Positions 45,801 through 63,978 of a DNA stretch of 64,000 nucleotides are shown here, in pieces. The notes beneath the pieces were generated by a model, which saw only the letters and a list, made by a program, of their open reading frames with translations, was not told the origin of the DNA and searched no databases. The stretch's first letter is position 1, and each line of letters begins with the position of its first letter. Source of the stretch: Schmidtea polychroa. Lineage: Eukaryota. Position numbers and translations under genes: made by a program. Location: positions 95,396,397 to 95,460,396 of the forward strand of contig CM097887.1 of the NCBI GenBank assembly GCA_044892525.1, written 5' to 3'.

Positions 45801-48800
45801 TGTTTTTTTGGACAAGTCAGTGATCATTAAATCCATTCGTTCTCTTGGGTTTGGAACAAATAAACACATGTTATCTACGACGATAATAAGATGAGCTTTG
45901 ATCTTCAGACGAAATGGAATTAGTTTAAGACAATTTTCATGCCTCTCAGAACTAAGAGTTTTCCGTACCTTACACGACTGAAGTACGTGTGACATTGTCT
46001 CATCTTCAGTGTGACATCGACGACAGAGTCTTTTTTCATCTTTTTTGTAAAGCTTTGCATTGATTGAAAGAGTGTTTGTGCGAGCACGGTGAATGAAGTT
46101 CTAAGAAAATTAAGACAGATCACCGTGAAAAATTGCTTTATTTATTAGAGGTGAAAGTTTGATTGCTGATGCAATGATGTTGGAAGTGCTACCGTTCTCT
46201 CATTTTGTAAGGTAAGAGTCACAAAGTGCTATGTGCAAGACCTTAGACGTTGTTTGACGATGATCAGATTTCAAGATACATGTGCCACGCATTTCCGTTG
46301 TTATGTAGAGCGATGGCTCATGGTTTGTGATGATGAATGATATGTTGATCTTGTGCGTTCTTTCGAAAAATGCAACTGCACTCCCTAACCCCTAACCTTA
46401 ACCCAAATATTCTGAATAATAATATCAATTATTATTTAATGCTTGTTTAATGGTTTTTATCAATAGGTGAGAAAATACCATGAACCTTTATGTAAAAATC
46501 ATTAACCGATTTTTATGAAAATTTCAATTCATAGCAAATAAAGTATACTGATTTTATCTGTATTAAAAATAACTGTTAAAAATTATTTTTTGAAATTATT
46601 AAAAAAAAATCGTCCATACTTGGATTTGAACCTCATACAAAACGTCAAAATCAAAAATCTAAGAGTGAACAAACCACTTAACCACGTCAGTAACTTTTAT
46701 TAATAATAATAATAAATTTGACTTCTATTTGCATATGGAATATCATGCCATTCGGATAAAATACAGCAACAAAAGAGTCAGAATGAGGATGTTTAAGCAC
46801 AGATATGTTTTGAGATTATTTTGACTCAATAGTTATTGTCAATCGACCGAATAGTCCTTGGCTCTGATATTGTTTTGTCATCAGACTCGTGTTCTGGAAT
46901 ATGCATTTCGATTATTGGTTCGTGTTTATGTCATCATTAGTTTTCTTTCAAAATTAGAGCAAGAATAATAACGACACTCATCAGCAACCTAATATCTCAT
47001 GAGCACTATCTAAAATAAACTTTTGCAAAGTGCATAACCCTCTTAACTATATGAAATATATTTATACAAATAATTATATATTAAAATCCATCTCAGGGTG
47101 AGGAACATCTAAATTATTAAATATATACAATAGAAATACAAGTATACATCAATATTTGCTGATGCTATTGCTTGCAGGCTTTAGTGAACTATTTAGAAAA
47201 TTCGAGAACTGATCTTTATCAATGTCTTCCAAAGTCTGAGTATTGTGATAATTCCACCGCCTGGCAGAATGTCTGATATTACTAATCGCACATTCTTTCA
47301 ATAGAAATTTTAGCTCTTTATTATTCATACTTACTTTAGAGATTATTTCAGAAGTTTTCAAAGGAAAGGACCCTAAAGCTCCAATATTACAAGTGTCAAG
47401 GTCGACTTTAAAGTCAGGGTTGACAGCCTGTATTGCATTATTTATAGAGTCATATTTCCTCAAATTATGTTTATCAACTTGTTTAAAGTTAGTGACAGAG
47501 TCGCTCGGAAATTTCATATAAACTAAAATGATTGTTTTTTTGGACAAGTCAGTGATCATTAAATCCATTCGTTCTCTTGGGTTTGGAACAAATAAACACA
47601 TGTTATCTACGACGATAATAAGATGAGCTTTGATCTTCAGACGAAATGGAATTAGTTTAAGACAATTTTCATGCCTCTCAGAACTAAGAGTTTTCCGTAC
47701 CTTACACGACTGAAGTACGTGTGACATTGTCTCATCTTCAGTGTGACATCGACGACAGAGTCTTTTTTCATCTTTTTTGTAAAGCTTTGCATTGATTGAA
47801 AGAGTGTTTGTGCGAGCACGGTGAATGAAGTTCTAAGAAAATTCAGACAGATCACCGTGAAAAATTGCTTTATTTATTAGAGGTGAAAGTTTGATTGCTG
47901 ATGCAATGATGTTGGAAGTGCTACCGTTCTCTCATTTTGTAAGGTAAGAGTCACAAAGTGCTATGTGCAAGACCTTAGACGTTGTTTGACGATGATCAGA
48001 TTTCAAGATACATGTGCCACGCATTTCCGTTGTTATGTAGAGCGATGGCTCATGGTTTGTGATGATGAATGATATGTTGATCTTGTGCGTTCTTTCGAAA
48101 AATGCAACTGCACTCCCTAACCCCTAACCTTAACCCAAATATTCTGAATAATAATATCAATTATTATTTAATGCTTGTTTAATGGTTTTTTATCAATAGG
48201 TGAGAAAATACCATGAACCTTTATGTAAAAATCATTAACCGATTTTTATGAAAATTTCAATTCATAGCAAAAAAAGTATACTGATTCGATCTGTATTAAA
48301 AATAACTGTTAAAAATTATTTTTTGAAATTATTAAAAAAAATCGTCCATACTTGGATTTGAACCTCATACAAAACGTCAAAATCAAAAATCTAAGAGTGA
48401 ACAAACCACTTAACCACGTCAGTAACTTTTATTAATAATAATAATAAATTTGACTTGTATTTGCATATGGAATATCATGCCATTCGGATAAAATACAGCA
48501 ACAAAAGAGTCAGAATGAGGATGTTTAAGCACAGATGTGTTTTGAGATTATTTTGACTCAATAGTTATTGTCAATCGACCGAATAGTCCTTGGCTCTGAT
48601 ATTGTTTTGTCATCAGACTCGTGTTCTGGAATATGCATTTCGATTATTGGTTCGTGTTTATGTCATCATTAGTTTTCTTTCAAAATTAGAGCAAGAATAA
48701 TAACGACACTCATCAGCAACCTAATATCTCATGAGCACTATCTAAAATAAACTTTATCAAAGTGCATAAACCTGGTAACTATATGAAATATATTTATACA

Positions 48801-49496
48801 AATAATTATATATTAAAATCCATCTCAGGGTGAGGAACATCTAAATTATTAAATATATACAATAGAAATACAAGTATACATCAATATTTGCTGATGCTAT
48901 TGCTTGCAGGCTTTAGTAAACTATTTACAAAATTTGAGAACTGATCTTTATCAATGTCTTCCAAAGTCTGAGTATTGTGATAATTCCACCGCCTGGCAGA
49001 ATGTCTGATATTACTAATCGCACATTCTTTCAATAGAAATTTTAGCTCTTTATTATTCATACTTACTTTAGAGATTATTTCAGTTGTTTTCAAAGGAAAG
49101 GACCCTAAAGCTCCAATATTACAAGTGTCAAGGTCGACTTTAAAGTCAGGGTTGACAGCCTGTATTGCATTATTTATACAGTCATATTTCCTCAAATTAT
49201 GTTTATCAACTTGTTTAAAGTTAGTGACAGAGTCGCTCGGAAATTTCATATAAACTAAAATGATTGTTTTTTTGGACAAGTCAGTGATCATTAAATCCAT
49301 TCGTTCTCTTGGGTTTGGAACAAATAAACACATGTTATCTACGACGATAATAAGATGAGCTTTGATCTTCAGACGATATGAAATAAGTTTAAGACAATTT
49401 TCATGCCTCTCAGAACTAAGAGTTTTTCGTACCTTACACGACTGAAGTACGTGTGACATTGTCTCATCTTCAGTGTGACATCGACGACAGAGTCTT

Positions 49497-49737
49497 AGTA
49501 GTGGATATAAGACTTACACCCGCACACCTACCATGACCCAAAGAACTACCAATACCCTTAGTTTATAGTAAAAAAGACCTCTTTGCCTTTCAATTTTATT
49601 CATCTTTTTCATTTTTTTCAAAAACATACCCCTAGCATTTCATCCATTAAACCCTAAAAATATAGGGAAAAATGGAGAAGAAATGGTGGCGCAATAATTG
49701 CATGAAGGTGGCGGGTGTGAGTCTTATATCCACTACT
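49497..49737. repeat. 241-bp segment bounded by 33/32-bp inverted repeats with Polinton-type AGTAGT...ACTACT ends
   Basis: Left arm AGTAGTGGATATAAGACTTACACCCGCACACCT (49497-49529). Right arm AGGTGGCGGGTGTGAGTCTTATATCCACTACT (49706-49737) is its reverse complement with 1 substitution and 1 indel; the terminal 18 bp are perfect. Confidence 0.9.
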
Positions 49738-49750
49738 TATCTTTATCGTT

Positions 49751-49814
49751 TTGGCAAATCACCAGTTTGGCAAGCAGCCAGTTTGGCAAGCTGCCTGAAT
49801 TGGTAAATCGCTGT
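49751..49814 (+). promoter_or_regulatory. Four degenerate 16-17 bp direct repeats resembling NFI/CTF sites (TTGGC-N5-GCCAA) upstream of pPolB
   Basis: TTGGCAAATCACCAG (49751), TTGGCAAGCAGCCAG (49767), TTGGCAAGCTGCCTG (49783), TTGGTAAATCGCTGT (49800). The repeats are seen directly; the factor assignment is inference. Confidence 0.4.
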
Positions 49815-49919
49815 TTGATGGATTATAAACAAATAAAAAATTTAAAATTTAAAACCAAAAATATAAAAATTTTAAAAATTTAAAAAACAGAGTATCCAAT
49901 AAAAATTTTTTTTTAATAA

Positions 49920-52900
49920 ATGAATGATTATAATTGCGAGGTTTGTCAAAAAATTTTTAAAAACAGAACAGCTCTACTATCTCATCAAAAATCAAAAGCA
50001 CATTTATTAAAAACAAATAGACTTGATAATTCAAACTCAAAAATCTGTACTAAATGCAAAGTAAGATATTTACATTCAGGATATGATAAACATTTTTCAA
50101 GTTGTATTGGGGTTTCTAAAATTAGAGAAAAATTTGAATGTCCCATATGCAAATCAAAATTTAATATAAAATCTAATTATTTAAAACATGTAAAATCATG
50201 TGCTATAAAAAATAAACAACCAATACCTAAAAGAGATTCTGATTCTGAGTCTGATTCTGATGTTGAACCTGAACATATTGAAAAAGAAAATTATAATTGG
50301 GATAACTTCAATCACACAGATGTATTTGGAGGTCAAATGTTTGCCTCCACAATCGCAGAGTATATAAGAGCAAATAAACAAAACATAAAAAATTCAATGG
50401 ACAATGCTATAAGAGTTTTTGGTCAATCAAGATTCAACATTATAAAATATAAAGTTAGAATCGCCACAAAATATTGGAGAGGAGAAGGAGCAGATACTTC
50501 CCCTTTAGATTCCATTGTTGAATCGACTTTTAAATATTTATTCTCAACAAAAGCAATAAATAAAACCATCAATGATTTATGCAAAGAGATGGGAGAACAA
50601 CAAGAACAAATAGAACAAGAATTGGGAGAATCAAATTTAAGATTCCATTCTTTCCAATCTATAGAAATTGAATATTGGAGAGCAGCACCCCCAAATCCAA
50701 AATCTTATATCCGTACACCATTCCCTTCTAATTATGTTATAAATGTACAGAATGGTGATAATAAATGTTTCCAATGGGCAATACTTGCTCACTTACATCC
50801 TCAAGCAAGGAATGCTCAAAGGGTTTCCAAATATAAAGAATATGAAAATGAATTAATATATCCAGAAGGATTTGAACACCCGATGAAAATTGAATACATT
50901 CCAAAATTTGAAGAATTAAATAATCTTAAACTTAATATTTATGAAAATGTTCCATCTAAGGGTGTTTTAAAACATATTGTTCCAATTTATATTTCAAATA
51001 AAGAATTATCAGAACAAGATAAAAATAGAGAAATAGATCTTTTAATATTAGAAGAATTTAATAAAGTTGATCTAAGAGATAGCAATCAAGGTTATGTTTA
51101 TAATGAAGAGGATGAAGAGGCAGGCCAAGATTTAAATCTTCATGAGGAGGAAGAAGATCCTGGATTATTTGAGTCGGCACTAGATGAAGAGGAATTGCAA
51201 GCGGGAATAGATGAGAAGGACCTACCAGACTTAGAAAGAAATCAACATTATGTTTTAATAAAAAACTTTCAAAGTTTTATGCGCTCAAAAAATCTAGCTA
51301 GAGGTGGAACAACTTGTAAAAGATGTTTACATTATTCCACAACAAAAAATGCTATAATTAAACATGAAAGATTATGTGAGAAGAACAAACCTTCTTTAAT
51401 TAAAATGCCCACAAACAAAGACATGCATTTTAAAAATTATTCAAATTTATTAGAATCATTAGGTGTAATAATAGGAGACTTTGAAGTAATAAATATAGAA
51501 CATGATTTAGAAAAAGAATATTTAAAAATAATAGAAAAACATAATTTATTAGATTCTTGGAGAGAGTTTGTTGGAAGGCAGGAGGGCAAAGGTCCAGTAT
51601 GGCAGAGCATGAAAAACTTTCTGTGGGAAAATAGAAAATCTTATACAATAAGAACCGCTAAACAAATACCTTCAGCTTATAAACTATTTTTTAAAAGTAA
51701 TTATCCTGAACTCATAGAATCTAAAGAATATTCATATAGAGGAACTTCTTCTGAAGATGCTTTAAACCATTTTGTCAATAGTATAAATCACCTAGAACAC
51801 GAATTATTTATAATATTAAAAACAGATTATAAAATAAATTTCTCAGATGAACAATGGGAAGAATATGAAAATGCTTCAAATTGTTGGATGTGTAAACAAC
51901 CATTCGTGAGCTCTAGGAATCCAACCTCTAGGAATCCTGAGTCTTTGAATCCTGAGTCTTTGAATCCTGAGTTTTTGAATCCTGAGTCTTTGAATCCTGA
52001 GTCTTTGAATCCTGAGTCTTTGAATCCTGAGTCTTTGAATCCTGAGTCTTTGAATCCTGAGTCTTTGAATCCTGAGTCTTTGAATCCTGAGTCTTCGGAT
52101 GTAGAATCTTTAGACCCCGAGTCTTCTAACATAGAACCTTTGGATATTAGACCTTCAGACGTTGAGTCTTTGAATCCTGAGTCTTATACCAGGATTATTG
52201 AAGAAGAACATTCAGATAAAGTTCCTGATCATGATCATTTTAAAAGTGAAAATAATTATCGAGGAGCAGCCCATAAAAAATGCAATCTTAATTGTCACAC
52301 TCCTAAATTTATACCTGTTATATTTCATAATCTTTTTGGGTATGATTTGCATTTATTTATAAAGGCTCTAGCTGTAAATGCTAAAAACTCTTTCAAGGTT
52401 ATCGGCTTAACAAAAGAAAAATATAAATGTGTGCAATATGGTTGTTTAAAATTTATAGACTCGTTAAACTTTCTTCAAATGTCTCTAGATGCAATAGCTA
52501 AAACAATGAAACCAGAAGATTTTAAATATACAACAGAGCATGTTTTGTAAAAAAATAATATTCCTCCAGAAGAATATTCTACATGCCTAGCAAAAGGAGT
52601 ATATCCATATGATTACATGAATTCATTTGAAAGATATAATGAAACAAAATTACCAGAGGAAGAAGTATTCTATTCAAAACTACAACTATCAAATATTACA
52701 GATCAAGAATATTCTCGAGCAAATAAAATGTGGGAATTATTCAACTGTAAAAACCTTGGAGAATATACTGACATGTATTTATCCCTTGATGTTTATATTT
52801 TAGCCGACTGTTTTGAAATCTTCTGTAATACCTTTGAATTAAAACCATATAATTATATAACACTGCCAGCTCTAGCTTGGGATATAATGTTATATAATAA

Positions 52901-54787
52901 ATAGATTTCTGGGGATTCTGATAAGAATAAAAAAATAGAATTAATAAAAGATGCTGACATGTTTAATCTATTTAAACAAAATATTAGAGGAGGTATTTCT
53001 TCTGTAATGGGGGATAGAGAAATAACCACAAATAATTCCATAACTCTTATTAGAAAATATTTTAAAGATACTGATGCAGACTATATTAAAATAGAAACTC
53101 CAGAAGATTCTAAATTAATAATGGAGGGTTTAACCGATCCATTTGAAATACTTTATGTCGATGCAAATGCTCTATATGGGGGTAAAATGAGTGAATATTT
53201 ACCAACTGATGAGTTCTCCTGGGTTGATATTCCTAAAGAAACAGATAAACTAAATGCTCTTATAAAAAAATACTTTTAACCCCTAAAGATTCTGATATCG
53301 GATATGCTATAGAATGTGATCTCGAGTACCCAGATAGAATAAAATCTAGAACTAGATTTCTTCCCTATGCAGCAATAAAAAGAATGATAAATCTAGAAGA
53401 ACTTTCACCTTGGCAAATTTTAAAACTTATAGCAATCACAATAAAACTTTTATGTGACCAAACTGATAGAGAATATTATCTCTGTCATTATAGACTCCTT
53501 CAATTTTATCTTTCTCACGGAATGCGTTTGAAGAAGATTCATAATATTATAAAATTCAAACAAGCACCATATATGAAAAACTTCATAGCGGGAAATATCG
53601 AGAAAAGAAATGAAGCAAAAAAAGTTGGAAATATCTATCTAGATGTGATTTATAAACTTTTAAATAATGCAGTCTTTGGCAAGACTATGGAAAATGTTGA
53701 CAAATACACACGAATAGAACTCCTAACAAATACTCAAAAGGATTTTAATAGATATAATCGAATGCTTGGAAAACCAACATTTAAGAATGCTGAAGTATTC
53801 TCAAAGAATCTAGTTGCAATTGAAATAAAAAATAATGAAAAAACTTATAATAAACCAATCTCTATGGGTTTTGCAATCTTAGAGCTTTCTAAATTACAAA
53901 TGTATGAAGCCTATTATGATGTTTTTACTCCTCATTTTGGAGATCGAGTATGCTTATGTGCAATGGATACAGATAGTTTCTTTTTAAAAATACATGGTAA
54001 AGATGTGAAAAAAGAAATAGCTGAAAATCCTACACTTTCAAAACTAATAAATTCATCTGGAGAATTATTTGCCTTCAAAGATGAAAAACCAAATAAGATA
54101 ATATTAGATGCAGTATTTATTAGATCTAAACAATATTCTCTTGAAGAGATGGAAAAACCAAAAACAGAAAAGCAAACAATTAAAATCATGTATAAAAATC
54201 CAATAACTAAAGAAACAGAAGAAATGGATTATACATTTGAACGACCAATAATAACAAATGGAAAAACTTTTAAAGATAATAAATGTAAAGGGATACAGAG
54301 AGCAGTATCTAAGAATATCACTCATCAAGATTATAAAAATTGTCTAAAAGAAAACCATCAAGATAAAATAGAAGAGGGTCATCAACTTAAATCTGAGAAG
54401 CATAATATGTATCTACAAGAATCGGCTAAGATATCATTATCTAATTATGATGACAAAAGATTCATCTTAACCGATATGAAAACAACTCTCCCAATTGGAA
54501 ATGATTTAATTCCAATAATAAAAAATTTGGATAAAATAAATGAATTTTATAACTTAAAAATTACCGATCTGGATATTTATAAAGTCGAGATTATTTATCC
54601 AGAGGTCCTACCACAATTTGATTATCTTGATAATAAACCTCTATATCCTCAAGTTAAAAACTCAATCTCTATAGAGGAAAAATGTTTCAACACTGAAGAA
54701 GAATATATAAAAAATCTAACTGATGAAGAATTTAATTATAATAAAAATCAGTTAAGTAGACTTTCAGTGACTTTCAGTCATGACTGA
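49920..54787 (+). pseudogene. polB: Protein-primed family B DNA polymerase of Polinton/Maverick type, disrupted
   Basis: N-terminal C2H2-like fingers (CEVC..H..H; CPIC..H..C) and NVQNGDNKCFQWAIL. Exonuclease motifs DFE, FHNLFGYD and YLSLDVYILAD, plus KGVYPYDY. Polymerase motifs YVDANALYG, KLLNNAVFGK, MDTDS and KCKGI. In-frame stops at 52548-52550 and 52902-52904, and a frameshift near 53277-53280. Confidence 0.95.
51939..52088 (+). repeat. In-frame 15-bp minisatellite (GAGTCTTTGAATCCT)x10 encoding ESLNP, with degenerate flanking copies to ~52195
   Basis: Ten consecutive units, one with a C>T variant giving EFLNP. They lie between CWMC and DHDH..YRGAAHKKCN of the endonuclease-VII-like insert in pPolB. 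Confidence 0.97.
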
Positions 54788-54873
54788 ATCTATTGTTTTT
54801 TAGATTTAAAAATGAGTAATCCAATCCTGACTAATGAAGATTTAAAAATAATATATGAAAATATAAAATCATA

Positions 54874-55176
54874 TTATAACGATTCAAAAGTTATTTTATC
54901 TAAAACATTATTTAATGATTTAATTAATGAATTTCTTCGATTTAAAAATAATAGTATACAGATCTCAAGAATATTTCTTATTAAGATTTTTATTATCGTT
55001 TGTCTCATAGTAGAATCCGAAGTACCTAAAATTTTACAAATTTGAGATTGAGTAAAATTAGGATTCTCACTTAAAATCTTAGTAAACTCTAAAGCTTTTT
55101 CTTTTAATAAAAACATGTTTAATTTAGAAGTATCAACTATAGCAACTTGATCTACTTTTTTTAAAAATACATCCAT
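54874..55176 (-). CDS. Small Maverick ORF with a helix-turn-helix-like segment; C-terminus possibly frameshifted
   Basis: ENPNFTQSQICKILGTSDSTMRQ has HTH-type spacing, and the ORF is convergent with pPolB and tightly packed against the next ORF. Confidence 0.5.
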   Translation of the reverse strand: MDVFLKKVDQVAIVDTSKLNMFLLKEKALEFTKILSENPNFTQSQICKILGTSDSTMRQTIIKILIRNILEICILLFLNRRNSLIKSLNNVLDKITFESL

Positions 55177-55177
55177 T

Positions 55178-55516
55178 TTATAAGTAAGAATTCTTTAACC
55201 ATTTTTCTCGAGATGTTTTTTTATTACTTATAACATTAGCCACCATGCCCTCCCTTTTTAATCTTATAACCTCATTCTTTATATCTTGTATTATTTGATT
55301 TGATTTCATTATTTCTTCGTCTGTCAGGATTCCATCTTCCAAAGCTTTTAATTGAAATAAAAATAATTTAGAGATTCCTAATTCTATTGATAAACAAACT
55401 TCTCTATATAAACTTTTCTTTTTAGAAGTATAAGATAATGAAACTATTTCAGTTAAGAAACCATCAGCTACAGAAATACTTCCAAGTATTACAGGTGCAA
55501 GAGTAACAACTGGTAA
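55178..55516 (-). pseudogene. C-terminal part of a conserved Polinton/adintovirus small protein (resembles the 'gasderminX'-type family); N-terminus lost
   Basis: A hydrophobic segment (LPVVTLAPVILGSISV) followed by KALEDGILTDEE, resembling the ALxDGxIsxEEF motif of that family from recall, not from a search. It is cut at the deletion junction. Confidence 0.5.
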
Positions 55517-56840
55517 AGATTTCAAGATACATGTGCCACGCATTTCCGTTGTTATGTAGAGCGATGGCTCATGGTTTGTGATGATGAATGATATGTTGAT
55601 CGTGTGCGTTCTTTCGAAAAATGCAACTGCACTCCCTAACCCCTAACCTTAACCCAAATATTCTGAATAATAATATCAATTATTATTTAATGCTTGTTTA
55701 ATGGTTTTTTATCAATAGGTGAGAAAATACCATGAACCTTTATGTAAAAATCATTAACCGATTTTTATGAAAATTTCAATTTATAGCAAATAAAGTATAC
55801 TGATTCGATCTGTATTAAAAATAACTGTTAAAAATTATTTTTTGAAATTATAACAAAAAAGTCGTCCATACTTGGATTTGAACCTCATACAAAACGTCAC
55901 AATCAAAAATCTAAGAGTGAACAAACCACTTAACCACGTCAGTAACTTTTATTAATAATAATAATAAATTTGACTTGTATTTGCATATGGAATATCATGC
56001 CATTCGGATAAAATACAGCAACATAAGAGTCAGAATGAGGATGTTTAAGCACAGATGTGTTTTGAGATTATTTTGACTCAATAGTTATTGTCAATCGACC
56101 GAATAGTCCTTGGCTTTGATATTGTTTTGTCATCAGACTCGTGTTCTGGCATATGCATTTCGATTATTGGTTCGTGTTTATGTCATCATTAGTTTTCTTT
56201 CAAAATTAGAGCAAGAATAATAACGACACTCATCAGCAACCTAATATCTCATGAGCACTATCTAAAATAAACTTTTGCAAAGTGCATAACCCTGTTAACT
56301 ATATGAAATATATTTATACAAATAATTATATATTAAAATCCATCTCAGGGTGAGGAACATCTAAATTATTAAATATATACAATAGAAATAAAAGTATACA
56401 TCAATATTTGCTGATGCTATTGCTTGCAGGCTTTAGTGAACTATTTAGAAAATTCGAGAACTGATCTTTATCAATGTCTTCCAAAGTCTGAGTATTGTGA
56501 TAATTCCACCGCCTGGCAGAATGTCTGATATTACTAATCGCACATTCTTTCAATAGAAATTTTAGCTCTTTATTATTAATACTTACTTTAGACATTATTT
56601 CAGAAGTTTTCAAATGAAAGGACCCTAAACTTCAATAATACAATTGTCAAGGTCGACTTTAAAGTCAGGTTTGACAGCCTGTATTGCATTATTTAAAGAA
56701 TCATATTTCCCCAAATTATGTTTATCAACTTGTTTAAAGTTAGTGACAGAGTCGCTCGGAAATTTCATATAAACTAAAATGATTGTTTTTTTGGACAAGT
56801 CAGTGATCATTAAATCCATTCGTTCCCTTGGGTTTGGAAC
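55517..56840. repeat. Divergent continuation of the satellite (unit position ~1223 to ~817 of the next unit)
   Basis: Resumes at AGATTTCAAGATACATG. The RLE frame is broken into 70-aa and 64-aa pieces by private substitutions and a 1-bp deletion near 56630. Confidence 0.95.
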
Positions 56841-60940: not shown

Positions 60941-61987
60941 GAACAAATAAACACATGTTATCTACGACAATAATAAGATGAGCTTTGATCTTCAGACGAT
61001 ATGGAATTAGTTTAAGACAATTTTCATGCCTCTCAGAACTAAGTGTTTTTCGGACCTTACACGACTGAAGTACGTGTGACATTGTCTCATCTTCAGTGTG
61101 ACATCGACGACAGAGTCTTTTTTCATCTTTTTTGTAAAGCTTTGCATTGATTGAAAGAGTGTTTGTGCGAGCACGGTGAATGAAGTTCTAAGAAAATTCA
61201 GACAGATTACCGTGAAAAATTGCTTTATTTATTAGAGGTGAAAGTTTGATTGCTGATGCAATGATGTTGGAAGTGCTACCGTTCTCCCATTTTGTAAGGT
61301 AAGAGTCACAAAGTGCTATGTGCAAGACCTTAGACGTTGTTTGACGATGATCAGATTTCAAGATACATGTGCCACGCATTGCCGTTGTTATGTAGAGCGA
61401 TGGCTCATGGTTTGTGACAATGAATGATATGTTGATCTTGTGCGTTCTTTCGAAAAATGCAACTGCACTCCCTAACCCCTAACCTTAACCCAAATATTCT
61501 GAATAATAATATCAATTATTATTTAATGCTTGTTTAATAGTTTTTTTATCAATAGGTGAGAAAATACCATGAACCTTTATGTAAAAATCATTAACCGATT
61601 TTTATGAAAATTTCAATTTATAGCAAATAAAGTATACTGATTCGATCTGTATTAAAAATAACTGTTAAAAATTATTTTTTGAAATTATTAAAAAAAGTCG
61701 TCCATACTTGGATTTGAACCTCATACAAAACGTCAAAATCAAAAATCTAAGAGTGAACAAAACACTTGACCACGTCAGTAACTTTTATTAATAATAATAA
61801 TAAATTTGACTTGTATTTACATACGGAATATGCTCTACATTGAAAATGCCATTCGGAAAAAATACAGTAACATAAAAGTCAGAATGAGAATTTTTAAGCA
61901 CAGATGTGTTTTGAGATTATTTCGACTCAATAGTTATTGTCAATCGACCGAATAGTCCTTGGCTCTGATATTGTTTTGTCATCAGAC
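60941..61987. repeat. Terminal, most divergent satellite segment (unit position ~814 through ~111 of the next unit)
   Basis: Colinear with the unit until ...GTCATCAGAC at 61987. It carries private alleles, including an intact Trp codon at 61287-61289 and extra bases near 61830. Confidence 0.95.
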
Positions 61988-62129
61988 CCGTATTTTCTTA
62001 TATTTTAAAATTATTCGCAGCAAAATTCTTAAATTATTGCTTTTTTGTTTCAAATAAAAAATGCTGCTTCCATTAAATCATCTCTTTTTTACTTTCAAAA
62101 AACCTAAGTGGGGCCAAATACTTGGAAAT

Positions 62130-63978
62130 ACGGAATTTAGCTAGAATCAACGAGAAAATTTCAAAATTATAATGACTAATAAATTTCCATCGTCGTTCAA
62201 AGGAAACAAAGATCCATCATACGACAATTGGCAACATCAACTTACGTCAGATTCTCAACAAAGATCTATGCTTCAAGAGAAATAAAAACATTTAAAAGTA
62301 TATTTTATTAAATCTTATTAGAAGTATGTACGTAAAAACTCATCGGGAACAAAAGAGTCAAGACATCTTTTTGAAAACGTATTTCAATAACCACCTAAAA
62401 TAATTGATCTACGAGATACAAAGACAAGCTTTCATGACAGCAGAAGCACATTATTCCTTTCGATTTTACAAAAAAATCAAACACCTTTTGAGAAAAAAAG
62501 AGTTCAAGACAGGCCTTGTTACGAACAATGAAACATTGGATGGAAACGAAAGCTTTACAGTGAATAGAGAAAACAAAGAATTGGTAACCCACCTCACAAT
62601 ATTTATATCTGAAGGTGAAAAAAGATTACTTTTACTAGTACTAAAGTTCAGCATAAACAGAGAAATAGATGAAGCAGCCATCCTCAATTTCACAACAGCT
62701 CTTTGTCGCATTGCGTACCAGATCAAATGGAACAATACAATTCCCATTGAAAATAACGAAGAAAAGCTCCTAGTATACATAAACACAGATAAACTCTATC
62801 AACCAAAACCTGCTGCAAAATTATATTTAACACTTTCAAAGGTTTTCCACAAAATCAAGGAGATATTTGAGAAGGAAAAAAGAAAACCATATCTCTCAAA
62901 CCTAACGAAAGATGAACAAGCAATATTAAAATCCCGTTAAAAAGAAACCATACGTTTACCTACCAAGTCAGAAAAATATCTATAAACAAGTTAAAGGTCT
63001 GCCTATGGATAACCTCGAACAACAGACACTGAGGACCATACAACCCATCGGTTTCTATTCAAGATATGTATATGATATCTTTATCACGACCAAAAGCAGA
63101 AAAGAAGAGGTGGAAATGTTCGATACATTCAATGCGTCTCACCGATATATTAAGTTTTAAATCGAATATTCGAAAGAAGATGGATCCCTCAATTTATTGG
63201 ATTTAAGAATTAAAATAGAAACAAAAACTCCAACATATGGGTTCTACAGAAAACCAGCTCGCAAAGAAATATTTATGCACCAAAGATCAGCGCTTCTATA
63301 CTTACAGAAAGTATATGTCATAAAAAATTAGAAACAAAGGATAGCCTATCGATGCATTGAAGAAAACGAGAACTTTAAACAGCAATCGAATTTCAATAAA
63401 ATCCTACACAGAAAGAATATCAAGGTGAGGACATTGAAAGAATGAATTTTACCCAAAAAAAGATCTAGGGAATTAACACAAAAGAAGAAATGTTTCTATC
63501 TTAATATTCCATTCATCGACTTTAAGATCCTGAAAGAACTTAAACGCACCGGTCTTCCAATTCGGATAGCACATAAATCTTGGAAATTGAGAAAAGCTCT
63601 GGCAAACAACACAAATAGAGAAAACAACTGCACAATTGAAAACTGCCAGACACCGAAACATATGTGCTTTAGAAAAAACATCGTCTTTTGCATCACGTGC
63701 AATGTATGCAAGGAAATATACATTGGAAGTCTAATCAGGACCTTCGACCAAAGAGTTAAAGAACATCTAGATTCTGGTGGGAAATCCTCGATGAGCAGAC
63801 ATCTCCAATAATGTCAATCAACAAAGGAAAGAAAAAATATTTCAATCGAAATTGTACCCAATGGAAATCCAAAAAAAATGTGAGATTCAAAGAATCTATT
63901 CTCATTATAAACCGACGGCCAAAAATCAACACTAAAGAAGAAATCAATGAAATCATCAATTTGATCTGTTGTCATTGA
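62130..63978 (+). mobile_element. Decayed, internally deleted Penelope-like retroelement (RT plus GIY-YIG endonuclease)
   Basis: N-terminal ISEGEKRLLLLVLKF and SNLTKDEQAILKS; RT remnants YKQVKGLPM, RYVYDIF (YVDD mutated, 63065-63076), FNASHRYIKF, LNLLDL and FYRKP; GIY-YIG region NIVFCITCNVCKEIYIGSLIRTFDQRVKEH. Multiple stops and frameshifts. Confidence 0.9.

Follow-up and report, generated by a model that had tools for sequence, protein, structure and literature searches.

Two Polinton-type ends lie 241 bp apart in front of a dead, truncated Polinton in Schmidtea polychroa

Whereas the two end orientations of a Polinton (Maverick) lie 13 to 25 kb apart, at this locus of Schmidtea polychroa they are separated by only 241 bp and stand directly in front of a protein-primed PolB (pPolB) gene. 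How did such a pair of ends arise, and was it ever mobile as a unit? The window, by which we mean the whole 64-kb stretch of contig CM097887.1 that was analyzed, allows the anatomy of the region, both of its junctions and the decay of its coding sequence to be read directly, and the closely spaced pair of Polinton-type ends fronting a dead, truncated Polinton proved to be a genuine and unusual structure. Its parts and their neighbors are as follows.

47765..49496, + strand: final complete unit of the 1732-bp tandem array, which holds 28 full units and, from base 1, a partial one; ends in AGTCTT at the left junction
49491..49496, + strand: left flank AGTCTT, derived from the satellite, candidate host target site of the outer end (flank comparison)
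49497..49535, + strand: outer (left) arm, starting with (AGT)2 (end-anchored alignment)
49536..49700, no strand: non-coding core, C-rich to about 49656 and then G-rich (composition, folding, Rfam)
49701..49737, − strand: inner (right) arm, an inverted copy of the terminus, ending in (ACT)2 (BLASTN, end-anchored alignment)
49738..49743, + strand: right flank TATCTT, putative surviving copy of the mini-element's own target site
49738..49919, + strand: upstream region of pPolB, with a 16-bp repeat of 2.9 copies at 49750-49795 and TATAAA at 49824
49920..54787, + strand: broken pPolB gene with an N-terminal C2H2 finger (Pfam zf-met, 8e-08; DNA_pol_B_2, 3.7e-07)
54874..55176, − strand: small ORF of 100 aa with weak, sub-cut-off HTH-like Pfam hints only (ORF list, Pfam)
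55178..55516, − strand: 5'-truncated ORF, homologue of an ORF that is convergent with pPolB in the related locus L030 (39/75 identical, E 4e-23)
55517..56840, + strand: satellite resuming at unit position 234, with unit positions 1-233 missing and no TIR at the junction

AGTAGT opens the 241-bp structure at 49497 and ACTACT closes it at 49737; within the 64 kb, ACTACT occurs once and AGTAGT twice. A preliminary description had proposed a 33-bp arm beginning with AGTAGT, a 32-bp inverted arm ending in ACTACT and a core that is first C-rich and then G-rich, and each of these elements was recovered. BLASTN paired 49497-49529 with 49737-49706 over 33 columns at 93.9% identity, and an alignment anchored at the two ends gave arms of 39 and 37 nt, with 35 matches in 39 columns, 2 mismatches and 2 one-base gaps. 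The ungapped part of the arms is 27 nt long with one mismatch (26/27), while the best 27-nt match of this type in 2000 shuffles of the neighboring 327 bp reached 18/27, and the inverted repeat at 49497/49737 ranks top in the window. Identity between the arms is 26/27 at the tips, fades by base 39 and is absent further in. Base counts change from C42/G13 at 49497-49656 to C9/G24 at 49657-49737, and each half is C-rich when read inward from its own tip.

The same description had spoken of a terminal hairpin, which holds for the arms and not for the core. The 241 bp folded with z-scores of -8.8 and -8.1 on the two strands (0 of 200 shuffles were equally stable), and the arm stem has an energy of -45.5 kcal/mol. 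When the 165-nt core was folded alone, it did no better than shuffled sequence (z -0.92; 41/200 as good), and the z-scores below -8 on both strands therefore come wholly from the arms. Aligned with its own reverse complement, the core gave a score that was matched by 109 of 300 shuffles, indicating no self-complementarity through the center. Because the core does not pair with itself, the structure is a panhandle and not a hairpin telomere. An inner stem at 49638-49683 was considered as the center of a fold-back and rejected as not significant. Comparison of the 241 bp with Rfam returned no match up to E 1, and neither an ATG/GTG/TTG-initiated ORF of 100 aa nor a stop-to-stop frame of 60 aa wholly inside the unit was found.

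We then turned to the junctions. Bases 1-49496 of the window are the 1732-bp tandem array, and the left arm begins to the base where the last unit breaks off: in the other 28 array copies and in a monomer at 61102 the site continues with TTTTCATC, and the last unit is cut there. AGTAGT at 49497, at this exact break in the satellite, is a Polinton end motif of the (AGT)2 or (AG)3 type. The flanks AGTCTT and TATCTT match at only 4/6 bases, as had been described; a match of at least 4/6 is found in 6.1% of 10210 hexamers of the window, and 0.5% agree in the last four bases. These flanks are not a TSD. They could stem from two separate target sites or from a junction at TCTT. The idea that the right flank is diverged satellite was rejected, since 12% of 1813 random 35-mers aligned at least as well, and the earlier statement that this flank is not satellite thus stands.

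The start of the pPolB gene lies 423 bp inside the outer end and 182 bp beyond the inner arm. Premature stops end its frames at 52550 and 52904, and the frame changes near 53250-53270. Its match to PF03175 lies above the cut-off (E 3.7e-07), and the broken gene is collinear with the intact protein P0001 (31-51% identity over its length). An in-frame 15-bp repeat of 10.9 copies at 51932-52095 (NPESL, 98% matched) is absent from P0001 and from a second protein, P0002. Pfam returned no OTU domain in the pPolB fragment and no retroviral-type integrase, capsid, ATPase or protease in seven frames from 49920-55543, and the truncated ORF at 55178-55516 found no usable match in the protein atlas. No copy of the arm was detected at the right junction near 55516. 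The Maverick is a truncated fossil of about 6 kb. It has lost its right part with the right TIR, and both the outer TSD and 233 bp of satellite are missing as well, for which a single deletion would be the simplest account. Because the right side was lost together with 233 bp of satellite, the missing TSD of the outer element carries no information.

The polymerase piece matched 595 longer proteins; among the 120 listed, from which identities were taken, P0001 and P0002 are the best, at 50-51% identity in the polymerase domain, and the others reach at most 45%. With an alignment query we assembled 101 pPolB-related loci, comprising 21 from viral contigs and the best 80 of 421 from metagenomes; a single-protein query of viral contigs yielded 11 candidates, none of which was accepted as a related locus. 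Only L030 and L031 are about 50% identical to the fragment, the other 99 loci lying at 27-38%. In L030, the closest relative among the loci compared, pPolB lies 183 bp from the contig start and is accompanied by the convergent ORF that it has in common with our fragment. These similarities place the fragment among the Polintons. The link to this group made in the preliminary description is upheld by the (AGT)2//(ACT)2 motif, by the position of pPolB 423 bp from the end and by the convergent ORF of L030.

The layouts of the two closest loci differ: pPolB is near the contig start in L030, whereas in L031 (49% identity) it is internal, and upstream of it lie a double-jelly-roll capsid gene (E 3e-28) and a weak, adenain-like and thus protease-like match. 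A separate observation concerns two relatives with 31% identity in pPolB, L102 and L105, in which the center of a large near-perfect palindrome is some hundreds of bases upstream of the pPolB region (1-117 in L102; 1-322 and 915-1015, interrupted by about 590 bp, in L105). No AGTAGT end was seen in either, and the palindromes may reflect head-to-head dimerization or a different lineage with hairpin ends.

One reading of the two closely spaced ends is that they form an intrinsic self-folding terminus. The family's TIR would then be at least 241 bp long and repeat its own first 38 bp in inverted orientation, and during protein-primed replication the 3' end of the displaced strand would pair with the copy 241 nt away, rebuilding a duplex origin locally without the far end. 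We regard both the structure and this mechanism as possible, though rather unlikely. A self-folding terminus provides the simplest account of the left junction, which would need one integration, and the stem is stable at -45.5 kcal/mol. The 423 bp from terminus to ATG also fall within the TIR sizes of vertebrate Mavericks (46-1447 bp, mean 402, the shortest being 46 bp, in the accessible part of PMC8097293). There is, in addition, an analogy with the archetypal Streptomyces telomere, whose terminal 13 nt pair with an internal palindrome in the "Rabbit Ears" fold (PMC5449611, accessible part); in both cases the terminal bases of a terminal-protein-capped replicon would pair with an internal complementary stretch. 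This is analogy and not homology: as far as that text goes, the Streptomyces telomere pairs 13 bp within 84 nt, packs palindromes and has its ends patched by Tap/Tpg, whereas here 27-38 bp pair over 241 nt around an unstructured core. A further point in favor is that half or more of the words of 49400-51900 were present in 10 of the 24 sequencing runs listed, from 5 studies (maximum 0.72), which shows that this segment occurs in other samples, although word sharing is silent on how the 241 bp are joined to it. Eight of the 24 runs had word shares of 0.05-0.15 and were not counted as evidence, and none of the runs listed that hold the segment is an RNA run.

Several observations speak against such a terminus. 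The inner copy stops exactly at a perfect (ACT)2. Pairing alone would not require this motif, and the integrase would find in it a second end to act on. None of the 101 related loci, most of them distant, shows the arrangement, and 42 of them have at least 450 bp upstream of pPolB; a pair of AGTAGT or AGAGAG ends within 1.5 kb was found in 0/101, a negative that is weak, as only L019 has a clear (AGT)n end and 99 of the loci are 27-38% identical. Neither L030 nor L031 includes a recognizable terminus, and their upstream regions gave only short matches to the 241 bp. In L031 the internal pPolB has no such repeat upstream, and we found no report of a Polinton with such an end in the literature covered. 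The broader claim that the lineage has a terminal inverted copy fixed in each end, with which it would rebuild its duplex origin locally and from which it could shed a 241-bp two-ended mini-replicon, is less probable again.

The divergence of the arms was compared with the decay of the fragment. From 2 premature stops in 4842 coding nt, with 6.0% of substitutions being stop-making, we estimated a decay of about 0.7% per site (0.08-2.5%). The arms differ at 4/39 columns, against about 0.5 expected had they been identical at insertion (P = 0.002; 0.12 if decay is set to its upper 95% bound), in a test that counts indels as substitutions and uses an inner alignment edge picked after viewing. This suggests that the arms differ beyond what the decay of the fragment predicts, and both were therefore probably once working ends, the inner ACTACT presumably being a real element end. 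Three of the four differences fall beyond base 27, and the combination of conserved tips and fading insides points to two ends under functional constraint of their own rather than to a recent copy-back.

A copy-back or template switch during protein-primed replication, in which the polymerase would have turned on the nascent end and the product would have been joined to the pPolB region and integrated, does account for an inverted copy that ends precisely on the terminal base. However, its arms should start out identical, a second switch would be required to regain the pPolB region, and the G-rich 40 bp inside the inner arm are not a copy of the left end with which they were compared. We consider this origin very improbable. 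Among the three options that the preliminary description had left side by side, a recent copy-back, with its 4/39 differences where about 0.5 are expected, fits worst, and a MITE-like non-autonomous Polinton fits best.

Our preferred, still tentative, explanation takes the 241 bp to be a non-autonomous mini-Polinton that inserted into a larger Polinton at its left end and took the place of this end through recombination. Here we infer the mobility of the unit, its helper and the order of events. The 241 bp would be a complete, gene-less end pair made of a left end of about 160 bp and a right end of about 80 bp, and the integrase of a full-size helper, perhaps together with its pPolB, would move this miniature in trans by reading the outer 27-38 bp. 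The larger Polinton, a member of the same family as the miniature or of a sister family, would have received it upstream of pPolB, within its left end region, and TATCTT would have remained to the right of the insertion. The left end of the miniature would then have substituted that of the larger element, either through recombination of the similar left ends or through an integrase that used the outer end. The composite would have come to sit in the 1732-bp array after AGTCTT, and a later deletion would have taken everything past 55516, so that the right TIR was lost along with the outer TSD and 233 bp of the array.

The exact (AGT)2//(ACT)2 on both arms and the 26/27 match of their tips argue for a mini-Polinton. 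Tip identity that fades inward is expected of ends under selection on their tips, halves that are C-rich inward are suggestive of two termini, and the unequal flanks, together with an outer end that meets the satellite to the base, are compatible with what a replaced left end leaves. Against it, a perfect 6-bp TSD around the 241 bp is absent (AGTCTT versus TATCTT, 4/6), a second copy was not found in the window, in metagenome contigs or in prokaryote genomes, and two events have to precede the final deletion in this model. A young deletion derivative of a long-TIR element would keep about 80 bp of perfect repeat instead of 38 imperfect bases, and the unit would therefore have to be old or belong to a short-TIR family.

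The search for copies was made with the arm itself. It matched twice within the window, both times in the 241-bp unit, and a 22-nt arm gave 0 matches in metagenome contigs and 0 in prokaryote genomes. Eight stretches in viral contigs that matched a 17-nt arm were attributed to chance, as they share 2-8 of 23 bases beyond the pattern and have no translated similarity to the fragment. The sole match in viral contigs to a paired-end pattern, L110, was likewise rejected, because no Polinton genes were apparent around its position in a 168-kb contig.

The inward divergence of the arms would also be produced by a one-off chimera, in which one Polinton received a second, sister-family Polinton as a nested insertion in its left end, and a deletion fused this left end to the last 80 bp of the second element. 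TATCTT would then be the target site of the nested element, and the 241 bp would never have been mobile as a unit. The arms do diverge after 38 bp while both remain C-rich inward, as the ends of sister families would, and the fragment already carries one large deletion, at 55516. On the other hand, the chimera requires a nested insertion as well as a deletion that spared just 80 bp, and the sister family was not seen. We judge the chimera improbable.

A length of 241 bp with imperfect TIRs of 27-38 bp is ordinary MITE anatomy. An unrelated cut-and-paste MITE that happens to end in AGTAGT beside a Polinton fragment would fit this anatomy in size and TIRs, but the exact Maverick end motif 423 bp from the start of pPolB would then be a coincidence. 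An assembly error fares no better: fold-back artefacts of reads are long perfect palindromes, unlike the short imperfect arms around a unique core found here. Taken together, these two possibilities are the most improbable that we weighed.

Non-autonomous Polintons as such are already known. In the Repbase names of Polintons, N stands for non-autonomous. Such names include Polinton-1N1_DR (PMC9341505) and Polinton-N1A_NV (PMC11296320), the latter with a capsid gene; polB-less Polintons of insects are still mobile (10.1101/2025.02.07.637071), and non-autonomous Polinton copies were not found in a lizard genome (PMC3014272), each according to the accessible part of the source. Like non-autonomous Polintons, the 241 bp have kept their ends and lost their genes, and movement in trans is assumed. 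They differ from the known ones, which in the sources as accessible are kilobases long or carry genes, a comparison made apart from the sizes of Repbase entries. They resemble MITEs in being short and non-coding with imperfect short TIRs; unlike the MITEs of cut-and-paste transposons, they have Polinton-type ends, and it is high copy number and TSDs that define a MITE family. With no TSD around it, the unit is not classed here as a MITE family, yet it most likely works like one.

For the end motif, TIR sizes and 6-bp TSD of Polintons we relied on the accessible parts of PMC8097293 and PMC10748475, and in the former (AGT)2//(ACT)2 is the commonest end motif of vertebrate Mavericks. The locus is like Polintons/Mavericks (Polintoviricetes; adintoviruses; pfam03175-type pPolB) in sharing this motif and in having pPolB near an end. 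Unlike them, the 6-kb fragment is without integrase, capsid, ATPase and protease genes, the right TIR and a TSD; its pPolB begins with a C2H2 finger, and OTU is not matched by Pfam. Neither a MITE-sized Polinton nor a self-inverted end appears in the accessible text of PMC6431247, PMC8504770, PMC8502044, PMC12220804, PMC10558129 and PMC5499653. Titles and opening lines of abstracts revealed no gene-less Polinton of about 240 bp, in a scope outside which most subscription papers, Repbase and supplements fall.

The literature covered, as far as its text is accessible, holds no definition of the cis signals on which the integrase and pPolB of Polintons depend. Should copies of the 241 bp prove to be dispersed and flanked by 6-bp TSDs, these signals would be limited to at most about 27-38 bp per end, and Polintons would breed MITE-sized parasites. 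If every member of the family had such an end, the rebuilding of the origin would differ from the long panhandle of the adenovirus style, and a truly fixed inverted terminus would be a new Polinton end architecture and a natural source of defective mini-genomes. If the structure is unique to this locus, it would be ordinary debris of a repeat-rich region.

The window contains some further features of note. The 1732-bp units are about 99% alike and carry an ORF that is 192 aa long in 23/29 units, five others having 130 aa and one 235 aa. This ORF has a zinc-knuckle-like match to zf-RVT (E 0.03), and we take it to resemble the zinc-knuckle and, presumably, endonuclease end of a non-LTR retrotransposon. 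In the last satellite unit, 48115-48136 is a short, degenerate run of CCCTAA that resembles the TTAGGG telomere repeat and recurs near 55640 and 61475 in detached pieces of satellite; the array may thus have originated in association with a telomere. The detached pieces are 97.5-98.3% (55517-56840) and 95.5-96.1% (60941-61994) identical to the 28 array units, and they have therefore dropped out of the homogenization of the array. Finally, the broken remains at 62404-63811 include a GIY-YIG match (E 0.0013) and presumably belong to a Penelope-like retroelement.
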